Source: Escherichia coli (lineage in GTDB: Bacteria; Pseudomonadota; Gammaproteobacteria; Enterobacterales; Enterobacteriaceae). From it: a DNA stretch of 64,000 bases. Position numbers and translations under genes: made by a program. The first letter of the stretch is position 1, and each line of letters starts with the position of its first letter. Shown here one piece after another: positions 25,840-44,722 of this stretch. The notes below the pieces were generated by a model. That model did not search any database, had not been told where the DNA came from, and worked only from the letters and a program-made list of their open reading frames with translations. The DNA lies in assembly GCF_003790525.1 (NCBI RefSeq), contig NZ_CP033635.1. The stretch is one strand, 5' to 3'.

Positions 25840-25876
25840 TAACGCTACGCCTGTAAGGCGCACTGGCAGTTCCCTC

Positions 25877-26018: not shown

Positions 26019-26040
26019 TGGGGGCTATTCTGGGGGCTAC
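26019..26040 (+). repeat. tandem TGGGGGCTAT / TGGGGGCTAC repeats (candidate integrase arm-type sites), left end
   Basis: Two copies 12 bp apart just upstream of int; a related TGGGGGTCAA at 25981; the same pair recurs at the right end. Confidence 0.55.
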
Positions 26041-26056
26041 ATTTCAGGGGTAACTC

Positions 26057-27250
26057 ATGCCACTTACTGTTCGACAAATTGAGTCGGCTAAACCTGCTGA
26101 CAAGGATTACAAACTTTCTGACGGTCAGGGCCTTTATCTTCTTGTCAAAAAATCCGGTGCCCGTTACTGGAATCTGAAGTACCGGTTTGCCGGTAAGGAA
26201 AAGAAACTGGTGATTGGTGTCTATCCTGACATATCACTGGCTCAGGCTCGTCAGAAGCGGGATGAAGCACGTAAACTTCTGGCTGAAGGTAAAGATCCGT
26301 CGTATGAAAAACAGGCGCGAAAACTTGCCATCAGGGAAAGTATGGCCTGCACATTTCGCACCATTGCAGAGGAGCTGCTTACTCATATGGCACGTCGATG
26401 GACAACAGGTTACCAGGCAGACCAGCGTGCAAGACTTGAAAATCATGTTTTCCCTGCTCTTGGAAACCGTCCTGTGACCGGGATCCGCCCCATGGAAATA
26501 CTGAACGTCCTGAGGACTATAGAAGAACAGGGAAAACTTGAAGCACTGCGTAAAACACGCCAGCTCTGTGCGCAGGTTTTTGATTATGCCATAGCAACAG
26601 GGCGTGCAACCGTTAATCCGGCATCGACACTCAGCGGGGTACTGCTTCCTCCTGAAAAACAACAGCGCAGGACGCTTTCTGAAGAACAGATAGGAGCTTT
26701 CATGTATCAGATAACGGCTTCCGGAAATCTGATGTCGCTGGCAACGCGGATGCTGGTTCTGACCGCTGTTCGCACCGGAGAACTGCGACTGGCAACCTGG
26801 GACGAAATTAATTTCACGGAGGCCCTGTGGGTTATTCCGAAAGAAAGAATGAAAATGCGACGACCGCACGTTGTGCCGCTTTCACGGCAGGTACTGGCGT
26901 TACTGGAGGAGATAAAAACACGCACTGAATCGCGTAATTCCGCCTTTATTATTCCTGGTGCATTCAGAAAAGATCTCCCGCGAAACCGCAAGTGTATCAA
27001 TGAATTCCTTGAGCAGTCAGGCTGGCATGCCCTGACAACAGCCCACGGATTTCGTCATACCTTCAGCACCATTCTCCATGACCATGATTTCAGCTCAGCC
27101 TGGATTGAACTCCAGCTTGCTCATGTTGATAAAAACGTCATGCGTGGCACTTATAACCATGCGCAATATCTGGATGGACGTCGTGAAATGATGCAGTGGT
27201 ACGCTGATTACATTGATTCACTTATGGAGAAAAACGTAAAAACGAAATAA
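26057..27250 (+). CDS. tyrosine site-specific integrase, phage P4 / CP4-57 IntA type
   Basis: 397-aa ORF with P4-integrase-like N-terminus and C-terminal catalytic HGFRHTF ... HxxR ... Y motifs. Confidence 0.9.
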   Translation: MPLTVRQIESAKPADKDYKLSDGQGLYLLVKKSGARYWNLKYRFAGKEKKLVIGVYPDISLAQARQKRDEARKLLAEGKDPSYEKQARKLAIRESMACTFRTIAEELLTHMARRWTTGYQADQRARLENHVFPALGNRPVTGIRPMEILNVLRTIEEQGKLEALRKTRQLCAQVFDYAIATGRATVNPASTLSGVLLPPEKQQRRTLSEEQIGAFMYQITASGNLMSLATRMLVLTAVRTGELRLATWDEINFTEALWVIPKERMKMRRPHVVPLSRQVLALLEEIKTRTESRNSAFIIPGAFRKDLPRNRKCINEFLEQSGWHALTTAHGFRHTFSTILHDHDFSSAWIELQLAHVDKNVMRGTYNHAQYLDGRREMMQWYADYIDSLMEKNVKTK

Positions 27251-27258
27251 GCCATCAC

Positions 27259-27308
27259 CCCCACCAACCACAGCGGTTGGTGGGGAGTTAACTACCATTT
27301 GTATTTTT
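27259..27308 (+). terminator. possible terminator after int
   Basis: 11-bp stem ccccaccaacc/ggttggtgggg with 5-nt loop; the T-run lies about 18 nt downstream, so it is non-canonical. Confidence 0.4.
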
Positions 27309-27616
27309 TGATTTCTGCCTTCAGGCGACATACTCAATATCATCTGATGAGCGAAGATACCCCACCCAAAATGATGGTAGCTTCACATCGTCATTTTCAT
27401 ATAGCAGCACACTGCTGTTCTGACCTCGTAGTCACATTTCTACAGCATCATTACCAGTCAGGCTGATTGCTCCTCATTGAAAGAATGAATCCATGACTAA
27501 CACAAAAATAGCTCTGGCCGGCTGTTACCGGTGTGAGAAGAAACTTGATACAAACTGCCGTGGGCTTTATTCTTGGAGAACTATAAGTTTTTCCAGATTT
27601 ACAACAGATTCAGCAT

Positions 27617-28672
27617 ATGAACAGATTACGCTTTGAAGTGAAGAATAATCAGGGCTGCTTCATTTTCCCGGAAACCTGGTATGAATCACTACTGGAGAAG
27701 TTTAACGAACTGCTTGACTCCTTTGACGAGGATGAGATCAGCGACAGGTCTTATATCAATGCCCTGAAGCGTATCACACAACAGGAACCGGATTTTATTG
27801 ATGCGTATGCATACATGGCATATGCCTTTCTGGAGCAGGAGACACCGCGAAAAGCGCTGAATATTGCACTCAAAGGACTGGCGGCAGGTAACCGACTGAT
27901 ACCTGAAGGTTTCACCGGTGAAATCAGCTGGTTACATCCGGAAAACAGGCCCTTTCTGAATGCCCTTTACGCCGCCATCCTCGCGAATGTGCACCTGCAG
28001 CATCATCAGAATGCTGTCATGCTCATTGATAAAATTCTGGCTTACAATCCTTCAGATAATCCGGGAGCACGCTGGTTACTGGGACCGGAACTGTTGCGTT
28101 CTGGTGACCATGAACGGGCTCTCTGTGTTCTCCGGCAGTATGCAGATGAATTTTCGCCTTACTGGTATGAGCTTGGTCTTCTGCATTTTATTAATGGAGA
28201 GCCGGTGAAGGCAGCGACAGCTTTCCGGCGCGGCTTTGCAGAAAATACTTATATCGCGGAGATTCTATGCGGAAATCTGTACCCCTTCCCGCTTGCCCTT
28301 TGGCATGATTATTCATCTGAGCCGGATACAGCCAGACAGTATTATGAAACATTCTGCCCGTTATGGGGAAAATATCCCGAGGCATTGTTATTTGTTAACT
28401 GGCTCTACAACCAGTCTGGCGTACTGAGCGAACGGGCTGAATTCATGAAGTGTGCTGAAATGCTGTTAAGGGCAGATGATCAGGAAATGAATGAAAGCAT
28501 TTTTCAGCAGCGGGAGCTCTTACGGGAAAGAATTGATGATCGTCTTTCTGAGGAAATCGTTCAGAAATTACGGACATTGAACGGGGAGGAGATCTGGCCC
28601 TGGATGTTACCGTTTTCCGGAGAACTGATCCCCGCAGACATTTGCTTTCAGAACAGTCTGAAATATCAGTAA
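27617..28672 (+). CDS. hypothetical protein, TPR-like helical repeats by eye
   Basis: 351-aa ORF; repeated A/L/Y-rich helical segments; no family recognised. Confidence 0.6.
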   Translation: MNRLRFEVKNNQGCFIFPETWYESLLEKFNELLDSFDEDEISDRSYINALKRITQQEPDFIDAYAYMAYAFLEQETPRKALNIALKGLAAGNRLIPEGFTGEISWLHPENRPFLNALYAAILANVHLQHHQNAVMLIDKILAYNPSDNPGARWLLGPELLRSGDHERALCVLRQYADEFSPYWYELGLLHFINGEPVKAATAFRRGFAENTYIAEILCGNLYPFPLALWHDYSSEPDTARQYYETFCPLWGKYPEALLFVNWLYNQSGVLSERAEFMKCAEMLLRADDQEMNESIFQQRELLRERIDDRLSEEIVQKLRTLNGEEIWPWMLPFSGELIPADICFQNSLKYQ

Positions 28673-28773
28673 TATCTGCACCAGGATGCCATTCCGGGGT
28701 CAGTAAGGATCTTCCCCCTGACCTGGACAAATGTAATGAAACTCAGCTAAGCCCCAGAAGAGCAGGCATATAG

Positions 28774-29154
28774 TCAACCGAGGTCGCTGCAATAAACCAT
28801 CGCGCTTTGATTCCCCCGATGAAGAGGTGACTGGCAGCGACTTCCTGAGCGACGACTTGTCTTTCCATCAATAGCGACTACCTGAGAAGATAAAACAGGA
28901 AGGACTTCTGAACCCCATCGCCGGAACGCAGCTTCAAACTGCTCAGGGACAATCAGCCCAAAAAGACGGGCGAATGTATCATGGGAAGGTATGCCATTTT
29001 TTAGAGGTAAAAAACTGGCGGAGCCACTCAATGCGTTGCCTGCCCAGAGCTCAATTTCCTGAAAATTATCCGCACCGACCAGCACACCACAAACGGCAAT
29101 GGTCAATGTATCAACCAGAGTGTGCCTGACTTGTCCAGGGCTGACAGGGATCAT
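28774..29154 (-). pseudogene. ISAs1-family (H-repeat type) transposase N-terminal fragment
   Basis: DTLTIAVCGVLVGADNFQEIELWAGN...GIPSHDTFARLF...VAIDGKT resembles the N-terminus of ISAs1/YhhI-type transposases; only ~126 codons, C-terminal DDE region absent. Confidence 0.6.
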
Positions 29155-29299
29155 GTATTGAGATGAATATATCGGTAACCGGCGGTATATGAGACATAAT
29201 ATATCCCTTTGATAAAAAAGGTTATGTTGACATATTTATCCTGCATGTCACGTATCATTATTTTTCATGCGATTGCCCTGCGGTTACCACCGCTCACAG

Positions 29300-29404
29300 T
29301 TAGTAAAGGACTGGGCGGAAGTGGTCAATATAAGGTTGCATTACCTTCCTCCTTATAGTCCGAATCTGAATCCGATTGAACGGATGTGGAAAAATGCTGC
29401 TTAA
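29300..29404 (+). pseudogene. IS630-family transposase C-terminal remnant
   Basis: Reading frame ending ...YLPPYSPNLNPIERMWKNAA* matches the conserved DDE-proximal YSP(D/E)LNPIE motif of IS630/Tc1 transposases; no upstream ORF. Confidence 0.55.
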
Positions 29405-29716
29405 TAGTATTGATGTTCATCTTTATGCCTCTAAAAGAAAGCATAAGATCACAACAGGCTCAGCAGGTCAATCACTCTATTTTTGTTCAAAAAACGTTCA
29501 TGATCTTGCCCTACCCAATTTTGTGGGTAAGGATATGCGATGAAATTCTCCTTGCAGTTTAATACAACCTTTCCATATTAAGCGGCAGTATTACCTGCCA
29601 GTCAGGATAATTTTACACCTAATGTTAGTTAAAATTTGTGCAACTTGAAACAATAATACTACAGTATCCACTATCGTCAGCACACCTCAAATACTATTTT
29701 TTATGAAACGTTTATT

Positions 29717-30373
29717 TTATAAATCATTATCAATCAAACTCAGGAATGTATCTCTGGCATAATTACCAACGATGTTGGTTGTTATCGCATCAAGACTACC
29801 ACCAACGATTCCTCCTACAACAGGAACAAACTTTGACATATTAATAACACCAGTAGCACCTGTTTTTGTAAGCAGTCTGAAACCGACTGCCTTATTTATC
29901 TTTACAATAATATCTTTACTAATACATCTAATTGCATTTGTTGTCAACTTTTGTCCTATCTGAATTCCTGCTTCCTTCAAAATATCTTTCGCAGCATTAC
30001 CTACAAGACAGGTATAAACAATAGTTCTGACTTTATCATCACGAATATCCTGGCCACACATGATCGCAATAGATGCAACCATCCTGACCTGAATGAAAAG
30101 GACACTTGAAATATTGGTCGGTATAGTTACTGGTAATGTAATAATTCCTCCAAGACCAGTAAGAAAACCTGATGTGGCTGACTTGGTATTTTGCCATCGA
30201 ATAAGGCTATTTATCTGTTCTTTTAAACTACTACCCGTTTTCAGATAACTTTCCGCAAGACTATGTGCCGTATCAATTCCTGGGATACCAATACCATCGA
30301 TGGATTTTTCATAAGCGTAATCCAGAAATTTTATGATTTTTGATGGCGTGAGAATATTTTCATTATCAGTCAT
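29717..30373 (-). CDS. hypothetical protein, possibly EcsC-family; glycine-rich hydrophobic segments
   Basis: ORF trimmed to first internal ATG (MTDNENIL); motifs TSGFLTGLGGIITLPVTIP and VPVVGGIVGG; AT-rich by eye; family assignment from memory only. Confidence 0.55.
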   Translation of the reverse strand: MTDNENILTPSKIIKFLDYAYEKSIDGIGIPGIDTAHSLAESYLKTGSSLKEQINSLIRWQNTKSATSGFLTGLGGIITLPVTIPTNISSVLFIQVRMVASIAIMCGQDIRDDKVRTIVYTCLVGNAAKDILKEAGIQIGQKLTTNAIRCISKDIIVKINKAVGFRLLTKTGATGVINMSKFVPVVGGIVGGSLDAITTNIVGNYARDTFLSLIDNDL

Positions 30374-30464
30374 ACAACAAAACACCTAAAAATTTCACGA
30401 TCACTTTCTAAAAACTATCTCCGACAGATATCGGAACACCAGTATTATCACCAATTAAATAATA

Positions 30465-30656
30465 TTATTTTTTGAGAAACAATTGTATTGCTCTGGCAAA
30501 AAGATTTTCTGTAATTGTAGCCTTACGTTTATAAATAACTTTCTCTCCACACACAGGACATTCATAAAATCCTGCTGTACAATTCATATGAATAATAGTT
30601 TTACTCCATTGACAATTTGTACAGATAAATGTAATGGGTGGACAGGGAAAAATCAT
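30465..30656 (-). CDS. small zinc-ribbon protein (two Cys pairs)
   Basis: ORF trimmed to internal ATG (MIFPCPPITFICTNCQ...ECPVCGEK); CxxC-type pairs; sits between the 117-aa and EcsC-like genes on the same strand. Confidence 0.45.
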   Translation of the reverse strand: MIFPCPPITFICTNCQWSKTIIHMNCTAGFYECPVCGEKVIYKRKATITENLFARAIQLFLKK

Positions 30657-30746
30657 TGGCTCACACTCTCGATATATAAATAACACTTACAGGGACATGT
30701 AAATATTTTCGATTTATCCCTATAAAAATAACTTCACCTCCAGTAA

Positions 30747-31100
30747 TCAATTCAGTTCTGTAAGACGATCGATTATTTTACGTAGTTCATCTGCAGAATC
30801 ACATGTATCCAGTGAAATTTTTATTCTAAAATTCTTTAACCAATTAGCAGCCTCCTGATCTTCACGCCATAAACGCTCCCCGCTCCAATCCCCCCTAAAA
30901 CATAGAGCAGCAATAGCCAATCCTCTGCATGCTGGCCGATTATGCTCAGATGTATTATTTTGGTTATAAAAATCGTTAATTCTTTCTACCGGAGATGATT
31001 TTATTTTATCCCACACATTGAAATTAGCTTTTTTCATCGTTTCAGCAGCAGCATTAGAAGCAAGCTTACCGAATCCCATTATAGCATCCCAAAATCCCAT
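30747..31100 (-). CDS. hypothetical protein (117 aa)
   Basis: ATG start with AAGGTG RBS; no recognisable family; AT-rich. Confidence 0.5.
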   Translation of the reverse strand: MGFWDAIMGFGKLASNAAAETMKKANFNVWDKIKSSPVERINDFYNQNNTSEHNRPACRGLAIAALCFRGDWSGERLWREDQEAANWLKNFRIKISLDTCDSADELRKIIDRLTELN

Positions 31101-31312
31101 ATATCACCTTATGCTATATAATATCTAAATGAGTATCTAATCTTTTAGAACCACTATTTGGACAATGGTTTTACGCCACTTACATCTGGTACAAATGAAT
31201 GTAACCGGGGGCTGAGGAAGTGCCATGAAGGTACGTGTCTGTTGTATTAAACTATCAAATCAGACCACACGCTGCGATTTTGAATTTAACAACGTGTAGT
31301 CAGATATTACAT

Positions 31313-32062
31313 TCAGAAGCTGTATGTAGCACCTAACGTAAATTCGTTACTTCTGACATCAACAGAGGATTTATATGTATCCTGCCCGTCTTCATACGTC
31401 AGGGTTGAATCACCTGCATCAAGATAGCGATAAGCAAGGTCAAGACTGAAATCCGGGGTGACCTCATATTTCACGCCAACACCAAGGCTCCATGCGAAAT
31501 TGTTATCATATCCCGAGTAATGTAATGAAGAAGCATCACTTACTTCACCTGATTTATTCCAGGAGGTATCGGTGTATGTTGCCTTATGATGTACCCGCGC
31601 ATAACCCAGTCCGGCTGATACCCACGGAGTGAAAGCACTGCTGTTTCTGAAATCATAATACGTGTTCACCATCAGGGTATTCACGCTGAGCCTGTTTTGT
31701 GTGTCTTCCTTCCAACCATTATCTCCAGACGGGGACTCCCATGTATCCAGTGGATAGCGGGAATTCGCAGAGCCGCGACCATAGAATTCAACTTCCGTGC
31801 GTACAGGGACATTGTAGTGCTGATAAAAGTCGTATCCCACCGCAAGGCCAGCACCAAAAACCGTATCGCTCTTGTCACCGCCTTTATACTTATAAACATC
31901 ATCCCCAAAGTCCTGACTAAAGCGCTGATTATCCTGAGTGATAACAGATGCACCAGCCTTACCCGTGATATAGAAACCGGTTTTATCCGCATCTGCCAGC
32001 GTCAGCGTTGAAAACGTACCGGTAAGCGCAGCTACCGCAGTGAGTGCCAGTAACTTTTTCAC
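31313..32062 (-). CDS. outer-membrane beta-barrel protein, OmpA/opacity-like; possibly Hra/Tia/Hek adhesin-invasin family
   Basis: Signal peptide MKKLLALTAVAALTGTFSTLTLA, alternating amphipathic strands, C-terminal ...GATYSF with terminal aromatic; GTG start; ~249 aa as for Tia/Hek-type proteins. Confidence 0.6.
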   Translation of the reverse strand: MKKLLALTAVAALTGTFSTLTLADADKTGFYITGKAGASVITQDNQRFSQDFGDDVYKYKGGDKSDTVFGAGLAVGYDFYQHYNVPVRTEVEFYGRGSANSRYPLDTWESPSGDNGWKEDTQNRLSVNTLMVNTYYDFRNSSAFTPWVSAGLGYARVHHKATYTDTSWNKSGEVSDASSLHYSGYDNNFAWSLGVGVKYEVTPDFSLDLAYRYLDAGDSTLTYEDGQDTYKSSVDVRSNEFTLGATYSF

Positions 32063-32377
32063 AATCCACCTCTCCTGATGTTTCCTTCAGACATATGAAT
32101 TTGTCCAATTTTAAGACGGATTTCTCATTGGTAAAATGAATTGTACAGATCGTATCGATCGACAAAGTCGATCGTTAAGCAGAAAAAAGATTTATCGTCA
32201 GCGAAGATTTGTTTATGGAAATGACTGAAAAAACGGGTTAAAAAACAGACTGTTCTGTCCATGTGAAACGGGAAGTGACGGGATAAGACGTTATGTGAGG
32301 ATTGTTACGGGAAATGCTGTTTTACGTTGTTAAAATGTAACTCCGCAATGAAACTATCCCCTGTGGAGGTCCTGTAA

Positions 32378-32731
32378 ATGAACAAAGCACTCTCTTCCAT
32401 TCTGCTCATCTTCGGTATCTGTGCATCATCACTGGCCGCTGAAAAAAACAGAACCGTCAGTTTTCCACGATGTGAAGTACAGGAAGCATCAGCTGTTGCA
32501 GCCAGCGTCAAACGGGACTATCTCCAGAAACAGGTATTTCAGTGGAAAGATGATCAGGAAATTCTCGGTCAGCAGCGTCCCGTTGTCTGGGTGAATCTTC
32601 GTGAGCCGGTAAATAAAGGTGATAATGTCATCACAGTGCATCTCACTGCCCGTGGAAAGAAAGCAGATATTCAGTATCGTGTGCGCGTTGACTGTAAGAA
32701 CGGAAGTGCTACCTGGCAACGCCAGGGATGA
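32378..32731 (+). CDS. small secreted hypothetical protein
   Basis: 117-aa ORF with N-terminal signal peptide (ILLIFGICASSLAA). Confidence 0.45.
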   Translation: MNKALSSILLIFGICASSLAAEKNRTVSFPRCEVQEASAVAASVKRDYLQKQVFQWKDDQEILGQQRPVVWVNLREPVNKGDNVITVHLTARGKKADIQYRVRVDCKNGSATWQRQG

Positions 32732-32777
32732 ACGGGTGAAGTTGAATACAGAGCCCGAACGAACGGGCTCTCCATAC

Positions 32778-33350
32778 TCATCGTATATAACTGAATGCGG
32801 TGATGACGTGTTTCACCCCCGCCACGCGACTGGCGATATCAGCAGCAGCCTGTCCTTCCTTCTCTGTAACTCTCCCCATAAGAAAGACTTCACCATTCTC
32901 CGTCAGTACCTTTACATCTGACAGTTTCACCCTGCTGCTCTTCAGTAACTGTGCCCGGATTTTTGTGGTCAGCCACGCATCAGTAGCTGTTTTATCAGCC
33001 CGAAGTGGTTTTCCCGTCCTTATTTCATTCCATACCTGCACAGTCCCCTCAACACCATCTGCAATCTGACGGGCTTTTTCACCTGCACTACGGTCTGGTG
33101 CCTGCCCTGTCAGCAGTACAGTGCCCTGGTATGCTGTGACGATGATTCGCGCATCCCCCCTGAGTTGTGAGTCCTTCGACAGCGCACGGCTGACCCTTGC
33201 TTCCAGAATTTCATCATCAATCTGCGTTCCCGCACTTCGGGGGTCCACTGACACTTTAGTACCCACAGCAGCCGTACCGACCAGCGCAGCGGCAACACAA
33301 CCCTGTAACAGCAACAGAGTCGAAAGAAAAGGCAGAAACCAGCGTTGCAT
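32778..33350 (-). CDS. BON-domain lipoprotein, DolP (YraP) paralog
   Basis: Trimmed to MQRWFLPFLSTLLLLQGC lipobox start with GGAGG RBS; sequence closely parallels DolP/YraP (two BON domains, ...ASRVAGVKHVITAFSYIR). Confidence 0.75.
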   Translation of the reverse strand: MQRWFLPFLSTLLLLQGCVAAALVGTAAVGTKVSVDPRSAGTQIDDEILEARVSRALSKDSQLRGDARIIVTAYQGTVLLTGQAPDRSAGEKARQIADGVEGTVQVWNEIRTGKPLRADKTATDAWLTTKIRAQLLKSSRVKLSDVKVLTENGEVFLMGRVTEKEGQAAADIASRVAGVKHVITAFSYIR

Positions 33351-33673
33351 GGCAGAATCCTCCACGGTCTGATATCCGGAATTTCGCAGTATGACGGCAG
33401 GAATCAGCCATCACAGATACCACAAGCTTCAGAGAGTAACGAAAACGTTAAAGGAAACGGAAGTGCCTGAATGTAAAGAACGGGGAACCACACAGGGTAT
33501 GGACAAACATAATAACAATAACAGGATGAAAATATTGAATAAAAAATAAAAACCGAGACATCATCATTTGCAGTAATAGCCACCTCCTTACCGAAAAGTG
33601 TGAGTTGCCGGACATTTTTTAAACGCATGATAAGGTCTGATGATACAGTCACCCTGCAACCAGGAGGTACATC

Positions 33674-33967
33674 ATGCGTATACGTGTTTTTGGTTACCGG
33701 CACTGCCCTTCAGTCCATCGCATCATGCATCACGCAACGCGAATCCCCGATGAAATGGAACCGGATGTTGTGTTTATTGATGTCGCGAAGCACAGTGTGA
33801 CGCTGCGGGATATGGCTGACCGTGCAGGCTGCCCGGTGGATAACTTCCCGTGTGTGTTTGTTGATGATGTCTATCTGGAGCCCCTCCACCAGAACCGGGC
33901 AAACCGCACTTTACATACTGCTGAATATTTATTACCGGATATGGACAATCGCTTTCATTCGGGATAA
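33674..33967 (+). CDS. hypothetical protein, possibly thioredoxin-fold / glutaredoxin-like
   Basis: 97-aa ORF with strong AGGAGG RBS; MRIRVFGYRHCPSV... layout resembles a glutaredoxin-type N-terminus with single Cys; weak. Confidence 0.4.
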   Translation: MRIRVFGYRHCPSVHRIMHHATRIPDEMEPDVVFIDVAKHSVTLRDMADRAGCPVDNFPCVFVDDVYLEPLHQNRANRTLHTAEYLLPDMDNRFHSG

Positions 33968-34091
33968 AAAATACTGCGCGTTCCTGGTTTATTTTGCGTT
34001 GCTGTCATGACGTGTTTGCCTTCATTGCCGGGATCGCGCACTTTTTGTTATAACTCCCCGGAGGACACTGTCTGTAATCAGATGGAAACCT

Positions 34092-34526
34092 TTATCTCAG
34101 TGATGTCCTGGTTAATACAGAATACTGCCCCGGACCAAGTAACATAATGGCAATCCCCCCCATGAAATACAGCATTTCATTTTCAAGCCCCCACGCCCCT
34201 ACTTCAGTCAGTGTGAAAAACTTCCCTGTTCCGACCAGAAGCGTGGCAACAATCAGTGTCAGCGCATAAATCAGAGCAGCAGGTCTGGTAAATATCCCAA
34301 GAATGATAAGTACCGGAGCCACGATTTCACCAATATACACACCATAGGCAATAAATCCTGGCAAACCAGCATCCTGCAACATTGATATAATCCAGTTGAC
34401 ACCGTGCTCTATTTTGGCCACACCATGGAACAGCATCAATATACCAAATGTCAGTCTCAGCAACAGAAGACCTGTATCCGGGTAGTCTGTCAGTCTGGTA
34501 AAGAACATATTTATTCTTGCTGGCAT
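34092..34526 (-). CDS. DoxX-family inner membrane protein
   Basis: 144-aa ORF, 4 hydrophobic helices, DoxX-like pattern. Confidence 0.65.
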   Translation of the reverse strand: MPARINMFFTRLTDYPDTGLLLLRLTFGILMLFHGVAKIEHGVNWIISMLQDAGLPGFIAYGVYIGEIVAPVLIILGIFTRPAALIYALTLIVATLLVGTGKFFTLTEVGAWGLENEMLYFMGGIAIMLLGPGQYSVLTRTSLR

Positions 34527-35126
34527 AAAAAACCTCGTTAAACGATAACAGATAATGAAGAAACTATTATCGTTGAGTCGACACCATCAATTGACCAGAT
34601 ATTTCTGACATTCATAATCAAAAAATTTGACAAAACTGTAAACGTTCGCTTTTTATACCAACACAGAATCCACTCAGTCACACAACCTGTATGCGTCATT
34701 TCCTGCTGTTATTTAAAAAATTTCTCACGTAACAGACATTTCAAAAAAACACTAAAAAATACCAGAACAATTAAGATAATATTACGATCAAATAAGTAAA
34801 AGTCTTTTGTCTGTTATTTTTATTTTCTGTGATTACTGTCATTCTTTCACCACTTTAATTAACATCGCATAATAATCCGGGAGGTGGATAAGATATGAAA
34901 ATTAACTATCCTTTACTGGCGCTGGCGTTGAATTATTACCTGTAGAGCTCACTCCGGATGAGCAGAAAGAACCGATGGTGGCTCTTACTCCACTTTTATC
35001 CACTCCTTCACACAGCACTGTCAGTGCAGGTGCCTGAAAGATCTCGTTCCGTCACGGTAAAATGACGCTGGAAAATTCTTCACCAGAACTGCTCACTGTG
35101 TTAATTCGTGAACTGACCTGGGGGGA

Positions 35127-35285
35127 ATGCGTGGTACCCTGCTGTACGGACTAATCGGAACCTGTCGGTTGAACGGTATCGATCCGGAAGCGTATCTGCG
35201 CCATATCCTGAACGTTCTACCGGAATGGCCTTCCTGCATGGTTGATGAACTCCTGCCATGGAATATGGTGCTCCCATTGGGGTAA
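35127..35285 (+). pseudogene. IS66-family transposase C-terminal remnant
   Basis: MRGTLLYGLIGTCRLNGIDPEAYLRHILNVLPEWPSCMVDELLPWN matches the conserved C-terminal tail of IS66-family TnpC; upstream frames are disrupted. Confidence 0.6.
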
Positions 35286-35411
35286 GCGTCAATACGGCGT
35301 TCGCTTAACTTAACACTTACTTTCAAAGCCTGATATCTGTCCTACGCTTTTCCTCAATACCACATCGCCAGCAGGAAACAACCTAATGCCTGTGTTGGGG
35401 TCTGAATTACT

Positions 35412-35430
35412 AATGATAATCATTTGCATT
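35412..35430. promoter_or_regulatory. Fur box upstream of the sitA-like gene
   Basis: AATGATAATCATTTGCATT, close to the Fur consensus GATAATGATAATCATTATC. Confidence 0.65.
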
Positions 35431-35433
35431 GTG

Positions 35434-35471
35434 TATAGCTTATGCTATAAAACATAGCCGTTGCTATGTTT
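35434..35471. promoter_or_regulatory. tandem MntR operators upstream of the sitA-like gene
   Basis: AAACATAGC-cgtt-GCTATGTTT, a perfect match to the MntR box architecture, preceded by TATAGC-ttat-GCTATA. Confidence 0.7.
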
Positions 35472-35503
35472 GTTCTAATTTTACTCACTATAGGTACTGA
35501 ATT

Positions 35504-36418
35504 ATGCACTCAATAAAAAAAGTAACCATGCTCCTGGGGTGCCTCGCCCTCACCTGCTCGATAGCATTTCAGGCGAGTGCAACTGAAAAATTCAAGGTCA
35601 TTACAACATTTACCATCATCGCAGATATGGCCAAAAACGTGGCTGGAGATGCTGCAGAAGTCTCATCCATAACCAGGCCCGGTGCAGAAATTCATGAGTA
35701 TCAGCCTACCCCTGGCGATATTAAACGTGCGCAGGGGGCACAACTGATTCTCGCCAACGGTATGAATCTGGAATTGTGGTTCCAGCGCTTTTACCAGCAT
35801 CTCAGTGGGGTTCCAGAAGTGATTGTCTCTTCGGGTGTGACGCCAGTAGGGATCACCGAAGGCCCCTACGAGGGAAAACCTAACCCTCATGCCTGGATGT
35901 CGCCAGATAATGCTTTGATTTACGTCGATAATATTCGTGATGCGTTGATAAAATACGATCCGGCAAATGCAAAAACATACCAACGTAATGCCGATACTTA
36001 TAAAGCCAAGATTACCCAAACCCTTGCCCCCCTGCGTAAGCAGATTGCTGAACTCCCTGAGAATAAAAGATGGATGGTCACCAGTGAAGGGGCTTTTTCT
36101 TATCTCGCACGCGATTTGGGGCTAAAAGAGCTTTATCTGTGGCCGATAAATGCCGATCAACAAGGAACACCCCAGCAGGTACGTAAAGTGGTTGATATAG
36201 TGAAGAAAAATAATATCCCAGCGGTATTTAGTGAGAGTACGGTTTCCGATAAACCAGCGCGTCAGGTTGCGCGTGAAACCGGCGCACACTACGGCGGTGT
36301 GCTCTATGTCGATTCCCTGAGCACAGAAAACGGCCCGGTACCTACGTATATCGACCTTCTGAAGGTTACTACCAGTACGCTGGTGCAGGGAATTAAAGCC
36401 GGGAAAAGGGAGAAGTAA
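35504..36418 (+). CDS. sitA: metal (Mn/Fe) ABC transporter periplasmic binding protein, SitA/YfeA/MntC (TroA) family
   Basis: 304-aa ORF with signal peptide and TroA-like metal-binding fold; Fur and MntR boxes upstream as in sitABCD/yfeABCD operons. Confidence 0.75.
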   Translation: MHSIKKVTMLLGCLALTCSIAFQASATEKFKVITTFTIIADMAKNVAGDAAEVSSITRPGAEIHEYQPTPGDIKRAQGAQLILANGMNLELWFQRFYQHLSGVPEVIVSSGVTPVGITEGPYEGKPNPHAWMSPDNALIYVDNIRDALIKYDPANAKTYQRNADTYKAKITQTLAPLRKQIAELPENKRWMVTSEGAFSYLARDLGLKELYLWPINADQQGTPQQVRKVVDIVKKNNIPAVFSESTVSDKPARQVARETGAHYGGVLYVDSLSTENGPVPTYIDLLKVTTSTLVQGIKAGKREK

Positions 36419-36552
36419 TGATGCAATCTGCGGGTATTGTCGTTAATGGCGTTACTGTCACCTGGCGAAACGGGCAGAAAGCACTGCGCGATGCATCCTT
36501 CACAGTACCAGGCGGATCTATTGCCGCTCTGCTTGGGGTAAACGGTTCCGGT
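36418..36552 (+). pseudogene. truncated metal ABC transporter ATPase (sitB-like), first ~45 codons only
   Basis: ATGA overlap with sitA stop; N-terminus typical of an ABC ATPase (VTVTWRNGQKALRDASFTVPGGSIAALLGVNGSG) breaks inside Walker A (GSGE in place of GSGKST); downstream sequence is unrelated. Confidence 0.7.
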
Positions 36553-36900
36553 GAAATCGTCTTGACACGTTTCTGGGCTCGTCATCAGCGGTTGTTGCGA
36601 ATGATCGCCGCCCTGCGATGGTTGATTTATTTTATTGCGCCCCGGCGTCTGCCTTGCCAGGTACCGGAGGCGGGCTCTGAAGGACTGAGTAGGGTGAGCG
36701 CGTCAGGCCGCGAAGTACTGACACGGGAGTTTGTGGCAGGCAGTGAAGTCCTGACCAGGGTAAGGGAGGCGCTGACGTGCAGGTCCTGACTGTCAGCCAG
36801 GCGCATGGTGACTGACTTTCTCAATAACCCGCTGTCAGGCGCTCAACGCCCGACAGCAGGCCATGGCCCGGTGTGCAAAGACCTGACGGCAGGTGTTGTG

Positions 36901-37221
36901 TCACCCGGAGAAGGTAAATCCCTCAAGAGGCAGCAGCTCAGCCAGTCGGTCCTCAGGCCACTCCGGCAGGCGCGTCAGTACGTCCGTCAGCCAGGCATGT
37001 GGCTCCAGACCATTACGCTTTGCTGTTTCCAGAAGACTCATTATCTGTGCCGCGCGTTTGCCGGCCATCAGCGAGCCTGCGAATAACCATGCCTTTCGCC
37101 CCAGCGTGACCGGGCGGATGGCTCGTTCGCAGATATTGTTGTCCGGTGGCACAGAGCCATCATCCAGAAAACGGCACAGCTCATCAGGTCGTTTCAGGAT
37201 ATAGCTGATAGCCTTATGCAA
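36901..37221 (-). pseudogene. IS66-family transposase C-terminal fragment
   Basis: NNICERAIRPVTLGRKAWLFAGS...LLETAKRNGLEPHAWLTDVLTRLPEWP matches the conserved IS66 TnpC C-terminal region; N-terminal two-thirds missing. Confidence 0.65.
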
Positions 37222-37694
37222 TGGACTGTCTGGCGGACCGCCTGCTCCTGCTCTTGACGGTTTTTTGCCTTGTATATCAGGTTATAGACGAGAAGATTGT
37301 CGTCTTCGTGGTTTCCGTCAGGAAAAGAGAATGCTCAAAAGTGTATAGTAAGGCGGTCAAACGCATTCGCTGAAATAAGATGTGTCACTTCAGCTTTGCG
37401 TTAACACGACTATTTTTCATCACTCAAGCGGTAGTCCCGGTGACTCACACGTATACGAGTCACCGCTTCAGATTTGAGTATCCGAATTTAAATCAGGGAC
37501 ACAATGGAAGAAGCGAACACTTTCGCATCCTCTTCCTGCAATTCGCAGACTGTCACTCTGCGTCCAGTTCCCTCTTTCCTCAGCAGGTACCAACGCCAGG
37601 CTCCCGACAAAGGTTGACCTGAAACGACCAAATACACAGGAAACAAAATACTGTCAGACAGAACGAGGCGTGCTATACATCACGCCTCAATGCT

Positions 37695-38684
37695 TCAGTG
37701 GCTGATTTTTTTCAGCTGTTCTTCACTCAATCCCGTGATTTTCATGATGGTCTGAAGCCCCATTCCTTCAGCCAACATATTACGCGCCGTTTCCAGTTTG
37801 CCTTCCAGTTGTCCTTCGAGTCGCCCTTCGGCACGGCCTTCCATTCTGCCTTCCATTCTGCCTTCTAGCTTACCGCGCTCCATACCCTGGGCAATACCGC
37901 GCTCAAATCCCTTGACTTCCCCTTCCTGCTTCAGTTGTTCAGCCAGTGTCATTATGTTGCCCTCATGCTGTGGCAGCCGCTCCGCCAGCGTCTGCAAAAA
38001 CCTTACCGTCACATGTTCACTGCCGTTCAGCAGATAGTGGAACAGAGCCTTCGCCAGCTCTTCATTCAGTGAAGTCTGTATCAGCTGAACCAGCCTGTCC
38101 ATCTGCAGCATGATGTCGCGGCTGCGGCTGTGTTTCATCAGCAGCGTCAGTGCCCCCATTCGGCGGTGTTGCATTATCTCATCGTCATCCAGTACCGTCA
38201 CGTCCACCAGGTGGAACGGTCTGGTGTAGATTTTAGCAGCAAGTTCCGGATTTCTGAAACACTCCAGCCAGTTCATGCTGTACGGGTACGGGCTCCGCTC
38301 ACCGTGGTAGAATAACAGCGGGATCACCAGCGGCAGCTCATGGTGCTGTTCAAAGTGACGCTGCATCGCCGCCACCGCATATCTGAGCATCCTGAACGCC
38401 ATAAACGCGTTTTCCGTACTCTGGTGTTCCGCGAGGCAATAAATATACCCCTCCTCACCGCTGACGGTCTTCATGCTGAACAGCGCATCGCACGCATACT
38501 GTTTCAGATCCTGGTCCACAAAGGTACAGGGCTCCAGCCGCAGCGTCGACAGATCACACAACTGCCGGTATTCCGCCGGAAGATGCAGTTCAACAAAATC
38601 ACGGGCCACCTCTGCTGAGGCCATAAACGCCCTGAAGGCGGCATCATGCGGCGTGGGCGTATTTTTCTCTTTCCTGCTGCTCAC
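37695..38684 (-). CDS. Rpn-family (YhgA-like) recombination-promoting nuclease / PD-(D/E)XK putative transposase
   Basis: 329-aa ORF with characteristic Rpn N-terminus (HDAAFRAFMASAEVARDFVELHLP) and C-terminal EGR(M/A/L) tetrapeptide repeats. Confidence 0.7.
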   Translation of the reverse strand: MSSRKEKNTPTPHDAAFRAFMASAEVARDFVELHLPAEYRQLCDLSTLRLEPCTFVDQDLKQYACDALFSMKTVSGEEGYIYCLAEHQSTENAFMAFRMLRYAVAAMQRHFEQHHELPLVIPLLFYHGERSPYPYSMNWLECFRNPELAAKIYTRPFHLVDVTVLDDDEIMQHRRMGALTLLMKHSRSRDIMLQMDRLVQLIQTSLNEELAKALFHYLLNGSEHVTVRFLQTLAERLPQHEGNIMTLAEQLKQEGEVKGFERGIAQGMERGKLEGRMEGRMEGRAEGRLEGQLEGKLETARNMLAEGMGLQTIMKITGLSEEQLKKISH

Positions 38685-38918
38685 TGTTTATCTCTTCTGA
38701 ACCAGGTAACATTAACAGAACATGTTTCAGGATATCCGCGCAGTGCGGAACATTACGGCTCACCACTGTGACGGCGGATCATCGCCACCCAGTATCCGAC
38801 AGACCCCTTACTTTGTTCGTAAACATCCTTCCTGCCCCCCTGAATCTCCAGACAACCAATATCACTTAAATAAGTGATAGTCTTAATACTAGTTTTTAGA
38901 CTAGTCATTGGAGAACAG

Positions 38919-39284
38919 ATGATTGATGTCTTAGGGCCGGAGAAACGCAGACGGCGTACCACACAGGAAAAGATCGCAATTGTTCAGCAGAGTTTTGAAC
39001 CGGGAATGACGGTCTCCCTTGTAGCCCGGCAACACGGTGTGGCAGCCAGCCAGCTATTTCTCTGGCGCAAGCAATACCAGGAGGGAAGTCTTACTGCTGT
39101 GGCCGCAGGAGAACAGGTCGTTCCTGCCTCTGAACTTGCTGCTGCCATGAAGCAGATTAAAGAACTCCAGCGCCTGCTCGGCAAAAAAACGATGGAAAAT
39201 GAACTCCTCAAAGAAGCCGTTGAATATGGACGGGCAAAAAAGTGGATAGCGCACGCGCCCTTATTGCCCGGGGATGGGGAGTAA
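38919..39284 (+). CDS. insC: IS2 transposase OrfA (InsC)
   Basis: [56 protein letters not shown]...; ORF-track ORF trimmed to Met 16. Confidence 0.9.
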
Positions 39285-40147
39285 GCTTAGTCAGCCGTTG
39301 TCTCCGGGTGTCGCGTGCGCAGTTGCACGTCATTCTCAGACGAACCGATGACTGGATGGATGGCCGCCGCAGTCGTCACACTGATGATACGGATGTGCTT
39401 CTCCGTATACACCATGTTATCGGAGAGCTGCCCACGTATGGTTATCGTCGGGTATGGGCGCTGCTTCGCAGACAGGCAGAACTTGATGGTATGCCTGCGA
39501 TCAATGCCAAACGTGTTTACCGGATCATGCGCCAGAATGCGCTGTTGCTTGAGCGAAAACCTGCTGTACCGCCATCGAAACGGGCACATACAGGCAGAGT
39601 GGCTGTGAAAGAAAGTAATCAGCGATGGTGCTCTGACGGGTTCGAGTTCCGCTGTGATAACGGAGAAAAACTGCGAGTCACGTTCGCGCTGGACTGCTGT
39701 GACCGTGAGGCACTGCACTGGGCGGTCACTACGGGCGGCTTCAACAGTGAAACAGTACAGGACGTCATGCCAGGAGCGGTGGAACGCCGCTTCGGCAACG
39801 ATCTTCCGGCGTCTCCAGTAGAGTGGCTGACGGATAATGGTTCATGCTACCGGGCTAATGAAACACGGCAGTTTGCCCGGATGTTGGGGCTTGAACCGAA
39901 GAGCACGGCGGTGCGGAGTCCGGAGAGTAACGGCATAGCAGAGAGCTTCGTGAAAACGATAAAGCGTGACTACATCAGTATCATGCCTAAACCAGACGGG
40001 TTAACGGCAGCAAAGAACCTTGCAGAGGCGTTCGAGCATTATAACGAATGGCATCCGCATAGTGCACTGGGTTATCGCTCGCCACGGGAATATCTGCGGC
40101 AGCAGGCCAGTAATGGGTTAAGTGATAACAGGTGTCTGGAAATATAG
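39242..40147 (+). CDS. insD: IS2 transposase OrfB (InsD), DDE catalytic subunit
   Basis: 301-aa ORF overlapping insC in the -1 frame, as in IS3-family frameshift arrangement. Confidence 0.9.
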
Positions 40148-40291
40148 GGGCAAATCCACCTGAATCTGAGGCAGCACCTGGCACGGCTGGGACGGAAGTC
40201 GCTGTCGTTTTCAAAATCGGTGGAGCTGCATGACAAAGTCATCAGGCATTATCTGAACATAAAACACTATCAATAAGTTGGAGTCATTACC

Positions 40292-40441
40292 GTGTTCCCG
40301 ACAGACGACTCGGTGAAAAAAGTGGTGTGGCTGGCAATCCAGTCTGCGTCCCAGAAATGGACGATGCCGTTGAAGGACTGGCGAATGGCAATGAGCCGCT
40401 TTATTATCGAGTTCGGTGACCGCCTGGACGGTCACTTCTGA
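40292..40441 (+). pseudogene. IS256-family (mutator-type) transposase C-terminal remnant
   Basis: VFPTDDSVKKVVWLAIQSASQKWTMPLKDWRMAMSRFIIEFGDRLDGHF* matches the conserved C-terminal tail of IS256-family transposases; immediately right of IS2. Confidence 0.6.
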
Positions 40442-40473
40442 GAAAAGGCATTTACACAGAATCCTAAACAGGC

Positions 40474-41211
40474 TCATGTACAGCGCTGTACCGGGCAATG
40501 GGTAATACCGGTCACAACCGGTAACCCCAGAGACAATGCAACTGTTTTTAACGCAATATACTGGCCGGATGTATCACCCCGGGCAGCCTGAAAACACCTT
40601 TCCACCCGGCATTGTCCGTCAGCACTTATCACCCGCCATGTCTGTTGCAATAAATCCACCCGTTGCGAACATTCTTCATCAACCGTGGCACTGACCCGTG
40701 GATGGCAAATGCTCGTCTGGCTGAGCAGCAACAGGCATCGCATTGTTGCTCCTCCATGTTGTTCCCGCAACCAGCGTAATACCACCGGTGGTGCTGGACT
40801 GGCCGTGTGATTACGTTCAGTAATACGCTCGTGCACCTGTCGGTAAAAGGAAGTACAGAATGCATGAATCTGTTGTCCGTTGATGTTTCCTTCTGCCGAA
40901 TGGAGTGTGAAGTGGACGGCCAGCAGACGCGGCCAGTGATCCACCGCCTGCTGAATAAAACGCCGGATTTCCACCGGCTCTGAAAGTACGGTTTCGGTTA
41001 TTTGCACGATTTGATCCCCTTGAATGTTGCTGAACCGGTGTCGGTACGCAGGAAAGCACGCCGAGACCGGTACGATGCCTGTTACAGCGAAGAACGAGGA
41101 ATGACAGACGGGGGCAGCAGGTCGCCAGCACCAGGGACAGGGCTGATTTCCACAATACCAACGCTGGTATTTTGCACATTGCCAGCGTACCGGCATTACA
41201 ACACGTTTCAT
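40474..41211 (-). CDS. hypothetical protein, weakly YagK/YfjJ-like (third paralog)
   Basis: 259-aa ORF trimmed to Met 15; central segment RLLAVHFTLHSAEG... resembles the RVDLRFP-type region of the two adjacent YagK/YfjJ-like proteins; competing frames exist. Confidence 0.4.
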   Translation of the reverse strand: MKRVVMPVRWQCAKYQRWYCGNQPCPWCWRPAAPVCHSSFFAVTGIVPVSACFPAYRHRFSNIQGDQIVQITETVLSEPVEIRRFIQQAVDHWPRLLAVHFTLHSAEGNINGQQIHAFCTSFYRQVHERITERNHTASPAPPVVLRWLREQHGGATMRCLLLLSQTSICHPRVSATVDEECSQRVDLLQQTWRVISADGQCRVERCFQAARGDTSGQYIALKTVALSLGLPVVTGITHCPVQRCT

Positions 41212-41432
41212 GCTGCTGCCCCTCGTGATGCCTCGATTCGTTGCTGCATCCACTGCTCCACTTCACTTTTGTACCAGCGGCTGCTGCGCCCCAGTTTGAT
41301 GGGTTTAGGGAAATGGCCTTCACTGATCAGCTTGTAAAACCATTTGTCGGTCATACCAGTGAAGCTGGTGATGTAGTTCATGTCGATCAGGGGATCGTCG
41401 GCACGCAGCAATACGCTGTCGTGACCTGTCAT
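41208..41432 (-). CDS. alpA: AlpA-family (P4 Vis-like) transcriptional regulator
   Basis: Small ORF with FTGMTDKWFYKLISEGHFPKPIKLGRSSRWYKSEVEQWM, the AlpA/Vis HTH signature; start codon uncertain (Met 5 or Met 22). Confidence 0.7.
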   Translation of the reverse strand: MTGHDSVLLRADDPLIDMNYITSFTGMTDKWFYKLISEGHFPKPIKLGRSSRWYKSEVEQWMQQRIEASRGAAA

Positions 41433-41512
41433 TGAGGTCAACATGGTCAGAATGTCCTCTGTGAGATTTATGAATGTTGGGCAAATGCGGGTGAATCTGC
41501 TGAGCTGAGCTT

Positions 41513-42115
41513 TCAGAGCTGGCCTGCTACGGGATACCAGGGATTACCGGCGAGGTAACGGGCTTCCGGATCGCGCACACCACGACGATCGCGGGCGAAA
41601 TCACTGAACGCCCATATCAGCTCTTTGAGTCTCTCTTCGCAGTCCGGTGAACAACTGTCCAGCACCACATCCCGGGTTATCTGTTTCTGGTACGGTGCCG
41701 CTTCACCCGGTGAGGCGAAGCCCAGCACGTTGCTCCAGGCATCCAGAATCAGCCGATCCAGTTCAGGGCCGTCGAAATACTCCTGCCTGACGCACAGCAC
41801 CACGTGGTATTCCGGCTTTTCAGGATGACGTGTCAGGAGCCAGCAGAGGTCACGTCCGGGGGTTGCATTCATCAGGTCACTGACGGTTTCAATAAAGGCC
41901 ATACCGAACCAGGTCCTGCGGCTGCTGAAGGTATTATCGGGTTCCCACGGCAGACGAAGCAGGATACGTCGTATCCGGGAGCCGGACTGCTCACGCAGCG
42001 CACGGTCAAGAACGCCAATAACTTTGTTCTGATACGAGGGCCAGAAGGGTGCCATGCTGTCGTCGAAATAAGAGAAAGTATTCACAGGATATGCTCCGTT
42101 ATGCGCAGCCCACAA
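41513..42115 (-). CDS. YagK/YfjJ-family protein (inovirus Gp2-like domain)
   Basis: 200-aa ORF, TTG start; island-associated family typically next to alpA. Confidence 0.6.
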   Translation of the reverse strand: MWAAHNGAYPVNTFSYFDDSMAPFWPSYQNKVIGVLDRALREQSGSRIRRILLRLPWEPDNTFSSRRTWFGMAFIETVSDLMNATPGRDLCWLLTRHPEKPEYHVVLCVRQEYFDGPELDRLILDAWSNVLGFASPGEAAPYQKQITRDVVLDSCSPDCEERLKELIWAFSDFARDRRGVRDPEARYLAGNPWYPVAGQL

Positions 42116-42417
42116 CGCGTCCTGCCCGGGGATGGATGGGCTGACGGGTTACAGGCTGCGGATGAGGTTGATGGAACAGGTGAAGAACCGACGCTGAGCG
42201 GGAATATCAGGGAAGAACATTCAGGGTGAATGAACTCCGTTGACTTCGGTTCACATCATTAAGCAGGGCGGTAAGGTTTTACCGACAGATTGTTTCCGGG
42301 TGCGGAAGCAGATACCGCTGCTGACTTCATGACGGGTTATCAGAATACGGGATAAGGGCATTGGCTGACTCTCTTACCGTGGCATAAGTTCAGGTACCGG
42401 ATACCGTTTTACCGACC

Positions 42418-43149
42418 TCACCTGCCATCCAGCAAACGCCCCGGCCCACGGCTGCAACCATAATTACGCTGACCGGAACCATTATGCTGCTTCGTTTTAT
42501 TTTTCACGAGATAACTGGCTCTGTTCCTGGCTTTCTGCATCGCTGCCACATCACCACGCTTGATCCAGAGAACAGCGGCTTCACCCGGCTTTTTTTCTGA
42601 AGCCTTCCTGGTATCAGAACATCCACCCGACAAAGGCGTGTCATCGGAAGAAGGGCGAGCATCAGACGATGCTGGTTTACGAAAAGGCTTCCACCTGGAA
42701 AAATGGACCAGGCCATCGCCTTGCCAGGGCTCAAGATGCAGAGCGCTGCACCATGCCTCCTGGATCATCGCCGCCAGCGAAGACGGTTCGCTGAAATCCC
42801 CGAGCGAGCACCAGGTATCTTTGTTGAGCAGCAATATCACGTGATAATGTTTCCTGTTTTCTTCCTCTCCGAACTCCCGGCACCAGAAATAACGCAGGCT
42901 GGTTGCATGCACACGCTGACTGGCACGTCGCTTATGCTGCTGGTAAGCCTGGATTTTGGCTTTCAGGGATTCGAAAAAACGAGAAATCACCGCTGAATCC
43001 GGATCGGGATCCATGATGGTGACAGGCATATACTCAGGGAAACGTAAATCCACCCGGATTAACGAGACGGCACGGTGCTGCGACAGGGCACTGTCGAGAA
43101 GGCTGTCAAAACGGGATAACCAGTAAGCATTGTGTATTGGTTGATTCAT
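42418..43149 (-). CDS. YagK/YfjJ-family protein (inovirus Gp2-like domain)
   Basis: 243-aa ORF; ...SLIRVDLRFPEY... motif; paralog of 41513..42115. Confidence 0.65.
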   Translation of the reverse strand: MNQPIHNAYWLSRFDSLLDSALSQHRAVSLIRVDLRFPEYMPVTIMDPDPDSAVISRFFESLKAKIQAYQQHKRRASQRVHATSLRYFWCREFGEEENRKHYHVILLLNKDTWCSLGDFSEPSSLAAMIQEAWCSALHLEPWQGDGLVHFSRWKPFRKPASSDARPSSDDTPLSGGCSDTRKASEKKPGEAAVLWIKRGDVAAMQKARNRASYLVKNKTKQHNGSGQRNYGCSRGPGRLLDGR

Positions 43150-44722
43150 GATGAGAGATCTCCGTTGATTTGGATTGACTTCACATCATTAATCACCGCG
43201 GTAAAACTTTACGGCATCATGTCATTAAGCAATGCTACAACTCTCTGATTAAGAGTGATTGAAACGGAACAAACCATCCCGGAACGAAAAGATAATCCTG
43301 CACACAGCAGCAAAACACGCAACAACAGCATGAATGGATTTAAAAACGACATGGACGACGAGAAAAGCCTGAAGGGAAAAGGATCCACAGAACATTCGAA
43401 CAAAACACCAGAAACGCAACCAGAACGCTTCCTGGCAATGCAAATCAACAACAACACCAAAACCTACAGCTTAATCACACAACTCAATCACGAATGCGAA
43501 TGACACGTTTAAAACCTGTTTACAGATAACGTCGTAACAAGATCATCCCCATCAGAATCGATTTTCTTATCTTGAGTATGTTACTTTTCAACATACCTAA
43601 ACGATTAACCACCGATAACGTAAATCTCATCTGAATCAAAACACCAAAACCAATCATCACGTTTTCGACAGAAGAAAAACACCACATCATGACAAAAAGA
43701 ATGACCTTACACGGAAAAGAAAAACGTCAGGAATCGTTAATGCATACCTCAATCTGATTGTTATCAAAACATCCAGAAAGTCGTTTAACAGAATCGTCGT
43801 AAGCACATCGAAAAGAACGTCAGATCACCTCAGGAAAGTTCGGGTTGATTTAGCGTAAAGATACTTTTCTCAGCTTAACGTCGAAACACAAACCAAAAAC
43901 CACAAACAACCAAAGCTCAGGAAAGGTTAAACGTCACATCAGTAAAATCGAATAGCAGATTGATTGCTTAAACAGGAAGGATTGTTTTACAGCAGCATTA
44001 AACTGATTTAGTTAACGTAAAATCAGAACTGACAGGTTTACTAACTTGGATGTGTATCAGTTCAAAAATGTGTACAGCAATGCGTAATGAAACACATTTA
44101 AAGGAGATTAATGGGAAAAGTGTGTAAATGCGTAAACATGCACTAATGAATCACTGAAGGAATACATACAAAACGACTTAATGAAAACATAAAAGGACCT
44201 AATGGAAAAGGTGTATATAATACCATATCCGACATTCTCAACATCTTAAGACATCCATGCAGACTGAATGTTGGTTTCAGTTTTTCACGGTAAGCATGAA
44301 TCTTTTCTGTTCAAAAGCAGAGCAGATTTACTCTGGAATTATTTTTCTTACTCCGTATTCTGTACAGCAAAAACTTGTGCTAACTTTACAGCAAACCATC
44401 ATAATCAGCGTCTGTAGTCCCATCGCTTTACCCCATGAAAGTGAATCCATATGATGCGAGAGAGATAAGTCATCGTATCCGGTAAACACTGCTAACCATA
44501 ACATAAGATCATTCAGTCAGTTTTATCTCTGAACTGACGATTATGGCATGCTCATTTATATGGCTCACAGAGGAGTGTTATTATCTGTAAGCTTTAATCA
44601 TCAAATCACATGACCATACCAAACTGGCGCTATATCAGCTCATTTGACACCCCTTCCCTTTAGATTTCTTTATGTGTTTTTTGTCGATAATTAAAATGTA
44701 ATATGAATTTAATATTTTTACA

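Follow-up and report, generated by a model that had tools for sequence, protein, structure and literature searches.

A sitABCD copy, very likely truncated by recombination, that keeps its promoter and sitA on a genomic island between glnH and glnP of Escherichia coli

We examined a 64-kb stretch of E. coli chromosomal DNA (hereafter the window) in which a metal-binding protein gene with Fur- and MntR-type promoter sites is followed by a broken ATPase gene. The related operons, which encode cluster A-I metal ABC importers, are yfeABCD of Y. pestis and the sitABCD operons found in Shigella, Salmonella and E. coli (APEC/ExPEC), and excerpts of PMC2626276, which cites Sabri et al., present the Mn/Fe importer function of SitABCD as established in APEC. 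We find that the locus is very likely a decayed copy of the Mn2+/Fe2+ ABC importer operon sitABCD, truncated by recombination and located on an integrase-bearing island between glnH and glnP.

The binding protein gene itself is complete:

35504-36418, + strand: sitA, intact ORF of 304 aa with 0 internal stops and a signal peptide ending in ASA

RefSeq names the product SitA (WP_112047416.1). It shares 98.4% amino acid identity with SitA of islands that carry the intact operon, and it aligns with Yersinia pestis YfeA (PDB 5uxs) at E = 5e-124. Residues H64, H129, E195 and D270 of SitA are identical in the YfeA alignment, where their counterparts H76, H141, E207 and D282 are the metal ligands; the His-His-Glu-Asp metal site of cluster A-I binding proteins is therefore present in SitA. 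The protein is probably exported to the periplasm, to judge from its sequence, and it cannot import metal by itself. The YfeA match and the alignment of six sit promoters described below agree with the original prediction, in which the locus was taken as sitABCD/yfeABCD-type with a Fur and MntR promoter.

The second gene of the operon is present only in part:

36418-36551, + strand: sitB remnant, codons 1-45, ending in Walker A ahead of the lysine

The sitB start at 36418 overlaps the sitA stop, as in every intact operon. Over the promoter, sitA and the first 134 nt of sitB, the locus shares 93-99% identity and the same gene order with intact E. coli sit operons. Identity with intact sitB extends up to 36551, which is codon 45 (Gly45 of GVNGSGKST); this is the last shared base, and 36552, where the original prediction had ended its interval, is the first base beyond. 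The product reads GVNGSG-EIVLT where SitB reads GVNGSG-KSTLF, thus diverging directly before the Walker A lysine, and the proposed break inside Walker A after about 45 codons was borne out. RefSeq calls the truncated sitB an incomplete pseudogene. The two permease genes expected downstream, sitC and sitD, are lacking at this locus, as had been noted, and searches with SitC and SitD found neither in the 64-kb window (tblastn, nothing better than E = 0.74). Unlike intact sit and yfe operons, with sitB cut after codon 45 and both permease genes absent, the locus allows no transporter as it is.

The open frame that starts at 36418 continues through foreign DNA to 36789 (123 aa in total), and this uninterrupted frame is what could speak for a complete, divergent ATPase, the outcome that the original prediction had named against itself. 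But ABC ATPase models, including the SitB model NF011630 (274 positions), match residues 1-50 of the 123-aa ORF only, and the other 73 codons are read-through of an IS66-family end. An ABC ATPase would have Walker A (GxxGxGKS/T), the signature motif and Walker B; in the 36418-36789 ORF the Walker A lysine, the Q-loop, the signature motif and Walker B are all absent. The related idea that the junction is an assembly error meets the same junction, at 99.6-100% identity, in nine independent complete genome assemblies, so it is no assembly artefact. Both forms of this reading are refuted on these grounds, and we leave them next to no probability.

Three features describe how the operon ends and what surrounds it:

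36545-36551: junction microhomology GTTCCGG, 7 bp, shared by sitB codons 43-45 and an IS66-family terminal repeat
36552-37245, - strand: IS66-family remnant, one element end plus the C-terminal 106 codons of tnpC (36901-37221)
35127-35326, + strand: older IS66-family remnant upstream of the sit promoter, a tnpC C-terminal fragment plus an element end

The junction sequence sitB'/IS66' is GGTTCCGGTGAAATCGTC. The DNA to the right of 36551 is 78-79% identical to complete IS66-family elements, from the terminal repeat into the 3' end of tnpC, as expected from the IS66-related DNA predicted downstream, and the ORF at 36901-37221 (- strand) aligns with the final 84 positions of NF033517, the IS66 transposase model (E = 1.5e-33). 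The interval 36552-37245 lacks tnpA, tnpB and the N-terminal part of tnpC; compared with a complete IS66 (tnpA-tnpB-tnpC between two terminal inverted repeats, with an 8-bp target duplication), this is a remnant and not an element. A 99.4%-identical copy of the remnant is located at a second chromosomal site in the genome AR_0085, where the element end reads GTCAT-GTTCCGGTGAAATCG, while the window has sitB sequence in place of GTCAT. Given these five extra terminal bases in the AR_0085 copy, the joint in the window is not an IS end left by transposition. A simple model of IS66 inserted into sitB was rejected, since the IS end is incomplete and the crossover falls in the microhomology; as read from the sequence, the joint is an illegitimate recombination with its crossover in the 7-bp microhomology. 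The older remnant at 35127-35326 is also found in islands with intact sitABCD. The sit module thus has IS66-family fragments on both sides, and the partial genes RelE', FhuD' and TRAP' nearby are RefSeq pseudogenes. Partial genes flanked by IS remnants are also the picture of IS-associated operon decay in E. coli islands; what sets the joint apart from decay by IS insertion is an IS end that stops 5 bases short and a crossover within microhomology.

Upstream of sitA, predicted Fur and MntR sites lie close together, and sites of both kinds recur elsewhere in the window:

35409-35427, + strand: Fur box, ACTAATGATAATCATTTGC, 15/19 matches to GATAATGATAATCATTATC with the central 13 bases exact
58081-58099, - strand: second Fur-consensus site, 111-129 bp upstream of fiu, i.e. 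in the fiu promoter
35450-35471, + strand: MntR-type palindrome AAACATAGC-CGTT-GCTATGTTT, 22 bp, perfect
35435-35448, + strand: upstream MntR-type core dyad ATAGC-TTAT-GCTAT, outer bases off the full operator
24119-24140: dps upstream dyad, ACACATAGCTGGTGCTATACTT, core at 24123
20025-20038: mntS promoter dyad, ATAGCCTGTGCTAT, in the mntR-mntS intergenic region
20099-20227: mntS, with the dyad at 20025 in its promoter
19446-19913, - strand: mntR, an ordinary core gene and neighbour of mntS
35424-35451, + strand: possible sigma-70 promoter by visual reading, TTGCAT (35424-35429), 16-nt spacer, TGcTATAAA, -10 at 35446-35451

The Fur box at 35409-35427 was missed when up to 3 mismatches were allowed and recovered with up to 4, at which the 64 kb contain 2 Fur-consensus sites against 0.1 expected. 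The other site belongs to the receptor gene fiu, a classical Fur target (fiu spans 58210-60492, and ybiX 60498-61211). The Fur box of the original prediction is therefore present, but with 15/19 matches its description as near-consensus was slightly generous. With up to 3 mismatches allowed, the window contains 2 matches to AAACATAGC-N4-GCTATGTTT, reportedly the operator consensus for MntR, where 0.02 are expected; one is the perfect palindrome that had been pointed out, exact at 35450-35471, and one is in the dps promoter. Four copies of the core dyad ATAGC-N4-GCTAT are present in the window (at 20025, 24123, 35435 and 35454), where 0.05 would be expected. Two of these dyads adjoin in the sit promoter (35435 and 35454), the one at 35435-35448 corresponding to the second half-site pair already proposed, and their half-site ATAGC/GCTAT is that of the mntS and dps promoters in the window. 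Since mntS and dps are known MntR targets, their dyads serve as internal positive controls and agree with the known MntR regulon; the operator consensus has in-window controls at mntS, dps and fiu. A literature text search for the MntR half-site sequence gave unrelated papers only.

The sit promoter thus has a predicted 19-bp Fur box that overlaps the promoter and a predicted palindromic MntR operator near it. If the sigma-70 candidate is the promoter, the Fur box would possibly lie over the -35, with the MntR dyads extending across the spacer and start region; the promoter scanner made no call at this candidate, because it demanded T at position 6 of the -10. The predicted order, a Fur box and then an MntR palindrome just upstream, is like that of the dual Fur/MntR promoters of E. 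coli mntH and Salmonella sitABCD, and sitA is probably transcribed at low Fe and Mn, as its predicted sites suggest. Excerpts of PMC8970401 describe sitABCD of Salmonella as under dual repression, by Fur and by MntR (the original work, Ikeda et al. 2005, is cited there and in PMC3788343), and report Mn-dependent binding and repression by MntR as shown at the Salmonella sit promoter.

We aligned the promoters of six sit copies: three island copies, LF82 and M22546 (the prophage-linked chromosomal type) and pAPEC-O2-ColV. The MntR palindrome is invariant and the Fur core is conserved in 6/6, which makes this an ordinary sit promoter. Only the island lineage, islands with intact operons included, has a perfect upstream dyad; other sit lineages have an ATAGG half, so that a single base separates the two. 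Compared with dual-repression sit promoters, nothing is distinctive here beyond that one base, which perfects the upstream dyad and is common to the intact islands.

This bears on the proposal in the original prediction that the retained operator could titrate the MntR of the host, whose gene was confirmed at 19446-19913 on the - strand. In its wider form, the promoter would draw off MntR, or Fur, as a decoy and thereby relieve repression of the host Mn regulon. A perfect MntR palindrome adjoining a second perfect core dyad would suit such a decoy, as would the second dyad being slightly better in the island lineage than in other sit lineages. However, the locus is a single chromosomal copy, and intact islands have the same two dyads, which are therefore not a consequence of the truncation. 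Furthermore, in our survey set of 5426 complete E. coli genomes, sitA was present in 2355 (~43%), at 1-4 places in each and about 1000 on plasmids, and the standard sit promoter accompanies sitA in every locus inspected. Genomes thus naturally hold between zero and four sit copies, and one extra site falls well within that variation. Two other dyad sites in the window, those of mntS and dps, are already served by MntR, and we found no hint that the operator number is limiting, nor of selection for a decoy. We consider the decoy highly improbable and dropped the titration claim: the promoter is standard and unchanged from intact islands, and the extra operator would have no meaningful effect on MntR availability.

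The truncated junction was found in 9 of the 5426 genomes: Br_112_kylling, LH50-c, TUM9803, strain 135, GF60, CM2, HCM-27C-1, PK-F-10122 and GPEC1040. The hosts or sources stated among them are chicken, poultry and chicken meat. Positions 35300-36900 of the window are 100% identical to Br_112_kylling and 99.6-99.9% identical to the eight other complete genomes. The truncated island follows glnH in Br_112_kylling and yhfS in GPEC1040, so it has moved since the truncation. In GF60 (NZ_CP172185.1), two truncated sitA-sitB' modules were observed, at 1008207-1009807 and 3878591-3879505, and such distant copies imply that the truncated island, or part of it, was duplicated or integrated twice.

By chromosome count, sitA occupies at least two places on 8/9 of these chromosomes and one place in GPEC1040. 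Full-length sitB'CD was found elsewhere on the chromosome in at least 6/9 (LH50-c, TUM9803, strain 135, GF60, CM2 and HCM-27C-1), counted among the best 60 records with a plain sitB'CD query. A chimeric query of island DNA plus sitB'CD was set aside, since extra matches to its island part confounded the count of second loci. In LH50-c, the second locus is a complete sitABCD adjoining iutA, with SitB and SitC proteins identical to those of the intact island lineage. No second sit operon was found in the 100 kb inspected of the 207-kb plasmid p1 of Br_112_kylling. The binding protein, which had been called an orphan, is orphaned in cis, but not in genomes of the same junction with complete sitBCD elsewhere on the chromosome, which are at least six of the nine.

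These second loci leave room for SitA to be kept as something useful: it might supply a SitBCD from another locus with an additional binding protein, as a dosage or affinity variant, or buffer Mn/Fe in the periplasm. The gene is intact in 9/9 genomes and has stayed unbroken through moves between at least two chromosomal sites, complete sitBCD is available in at least six of the nine, and the identity of the LH50-c SitB and SitC with the island-lineage proteins fits the same idea. We nevertheless find it unlikely. The sitA copies of the nine genomes are 99.8-100% identical, and the truncated lineage has 0 private substitutions against six intact alleles (seven alleles compared), so that no decay of sitA can be seen; the truncation is therefore recent, too recent for intactness to mean selection, and an intact sitA says nothing about it. 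The junction is also limited to 9/5426 genomes, and our literature search gave no cluster A-I binding protein that works without its cognate transporter. Still more doubtful is the stronger form, in which a still-regulated SitA has a role of its own, as a high-affinity Mn/Fe binder docking to another SitBCD or as a metal buffer, and the island is a selected "binding-protein-only" module spreading in poultry E. coli. Most likely, the locus is a neutral remnant, from which SitA is possibly still made under Fe/Mn limitation, and SitA may feed a second sit operon where one exists.

Where the two parts of the junction came from can be read from the island around them:

25877-52678, + strand: genomic island of ~26.8 kb between glnH and glnP
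25877-25890 and 52665-52678: 14-bp direct repeat TCCCCTCTGGGGAG at the island borders
26057-27250: P4-type integrase (NF007246, 269.6 bits)

The insertion is in the intergenic palindrome between glnH, whose last base is 25839, and glnP, whose first is 52766, and GGGGGCTA repeats are found close to both ends of the island. Its terminal tyrosine integrase and flanking direct repeats give it the build of an integrase island; the integrase scores below the curated NF007246 cutoff of 434 and is thus a divergent member. Excerpts of Biggel et al. 2020 (PMC7686366) describe pathogenicity islands that integrate in the gln (glnP-glnH) and ula (ulaE-ulaD) operons. Our island resembles them in its gln site, in the ulaE site of its intact-sit relatives and in the P4-type integrase at one end, and it differs from the papGII islands described there in its cargo, which is sit and others, and in the yhfS site that was also seen.

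Positions 25876-36559 of the window are syntenic with the sit island of AR_0085 and CFSAN061770, where the order is integrase, EcsC, outer membrane protein, YebF-like, DolP-like, DoxX, IS66 remnant and sitABCD. Positions 36545-46041 are syntenic with the second-site island of AR_0085 (IS66', RelE', Rpn and hypothetical genes), barring an IS2; this right arm is 94.5-97.8% identical to that separate island (2788959-2803669 in AR_0085) and includes a gene for an inovirus Gp2-family protein. With its left and right arms syntenic with different islands, the island in the window is chimeric. The ancestral event could be a recombination between two related islands or a deletion within a larger island that held both parts. 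Ahead of the second-site module, AR_0085 has lldD, lldP, a gene for an MFS transporter and a further ABC ATPase fragment.

We propose that illegitimate recombination in GTTCCGG, between the Walker A codons of sitB and the terminal repeat of an IS66-family remnant on a related island, would have removed sitC, sitD and the part of sitB from codon 46 on. It would thereby have joined the left arm of a sit island to the right arm of the other island type, and the native sit promoter (Fur box and MntR operators) and sitA would remain unchanged. In most host genomes, a complete second sit operon could use the stranded SitA in trans, which would also explain why the loss of sitBCD was tolerated. This is ordinary operon decay, with no new regulatory device.

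The locus matters little in itself, as one more case of decay of an accessory virulence or fitness operon in mosaic genomic islands. Genotyping of "sit" by detection of sitA would score it as positive despite no possible transporter, and the junction cleanly marks a small group of island variants that come mostly from poultry. Should the orphan SitA prove to cooperate with a second sit operon, this would make a modest example of trans-complementation between paralogous ABC systems.

The cargo block at 29717-34526 accompanies sit in every island variant seen. It contains an EcsC-family protein, a small hypothetical protein, a 249-aa outer membrane protein, YebF-like and DolP-like paralogues, a 97-aa glutaredoxin-like ORF (a weak GrxA match) and a DoxX-family protein. 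An IS2 at 38832-40158, missing from the AR_0085 arm, separates an Rpn-family gene (37695-38684) from the hypothetical genes downstream. Br_112_kylling has an IS2 at this place too, and its sequence departs from the window directly after 40158; to the right of IS2 (NZ_CP182371.1, 2520000-2560000) we observed an iol gene cluster, IS and group II intron debris and yejO-narP-ccm-nap, with no glnP. This yejO-narP-ccm-nap continuation indicates a large IS-mediated rearrangement in that strain, absent from the genome of the window. The possibility that the island in the window also runs into a large chromosomal rearrangement was rejected, since it differs from Br_112_kylling after 40158 and closes normally at glnP.

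Finally, at every site seen, the left end of the island abuts a CYCCCC-N3-GGGGAG palindrome. In the window the site is the glnH-glnP intergenic repeat, at 25876-25890 and 52664-52678; the others are ulaE codons ~14-19 in both orientations (AR_0085 vs CFSAN061770) and a position downstream of yhfS (GPEC1040). The apparent target of the integrase is a short palindrome, not a tRNA gene.
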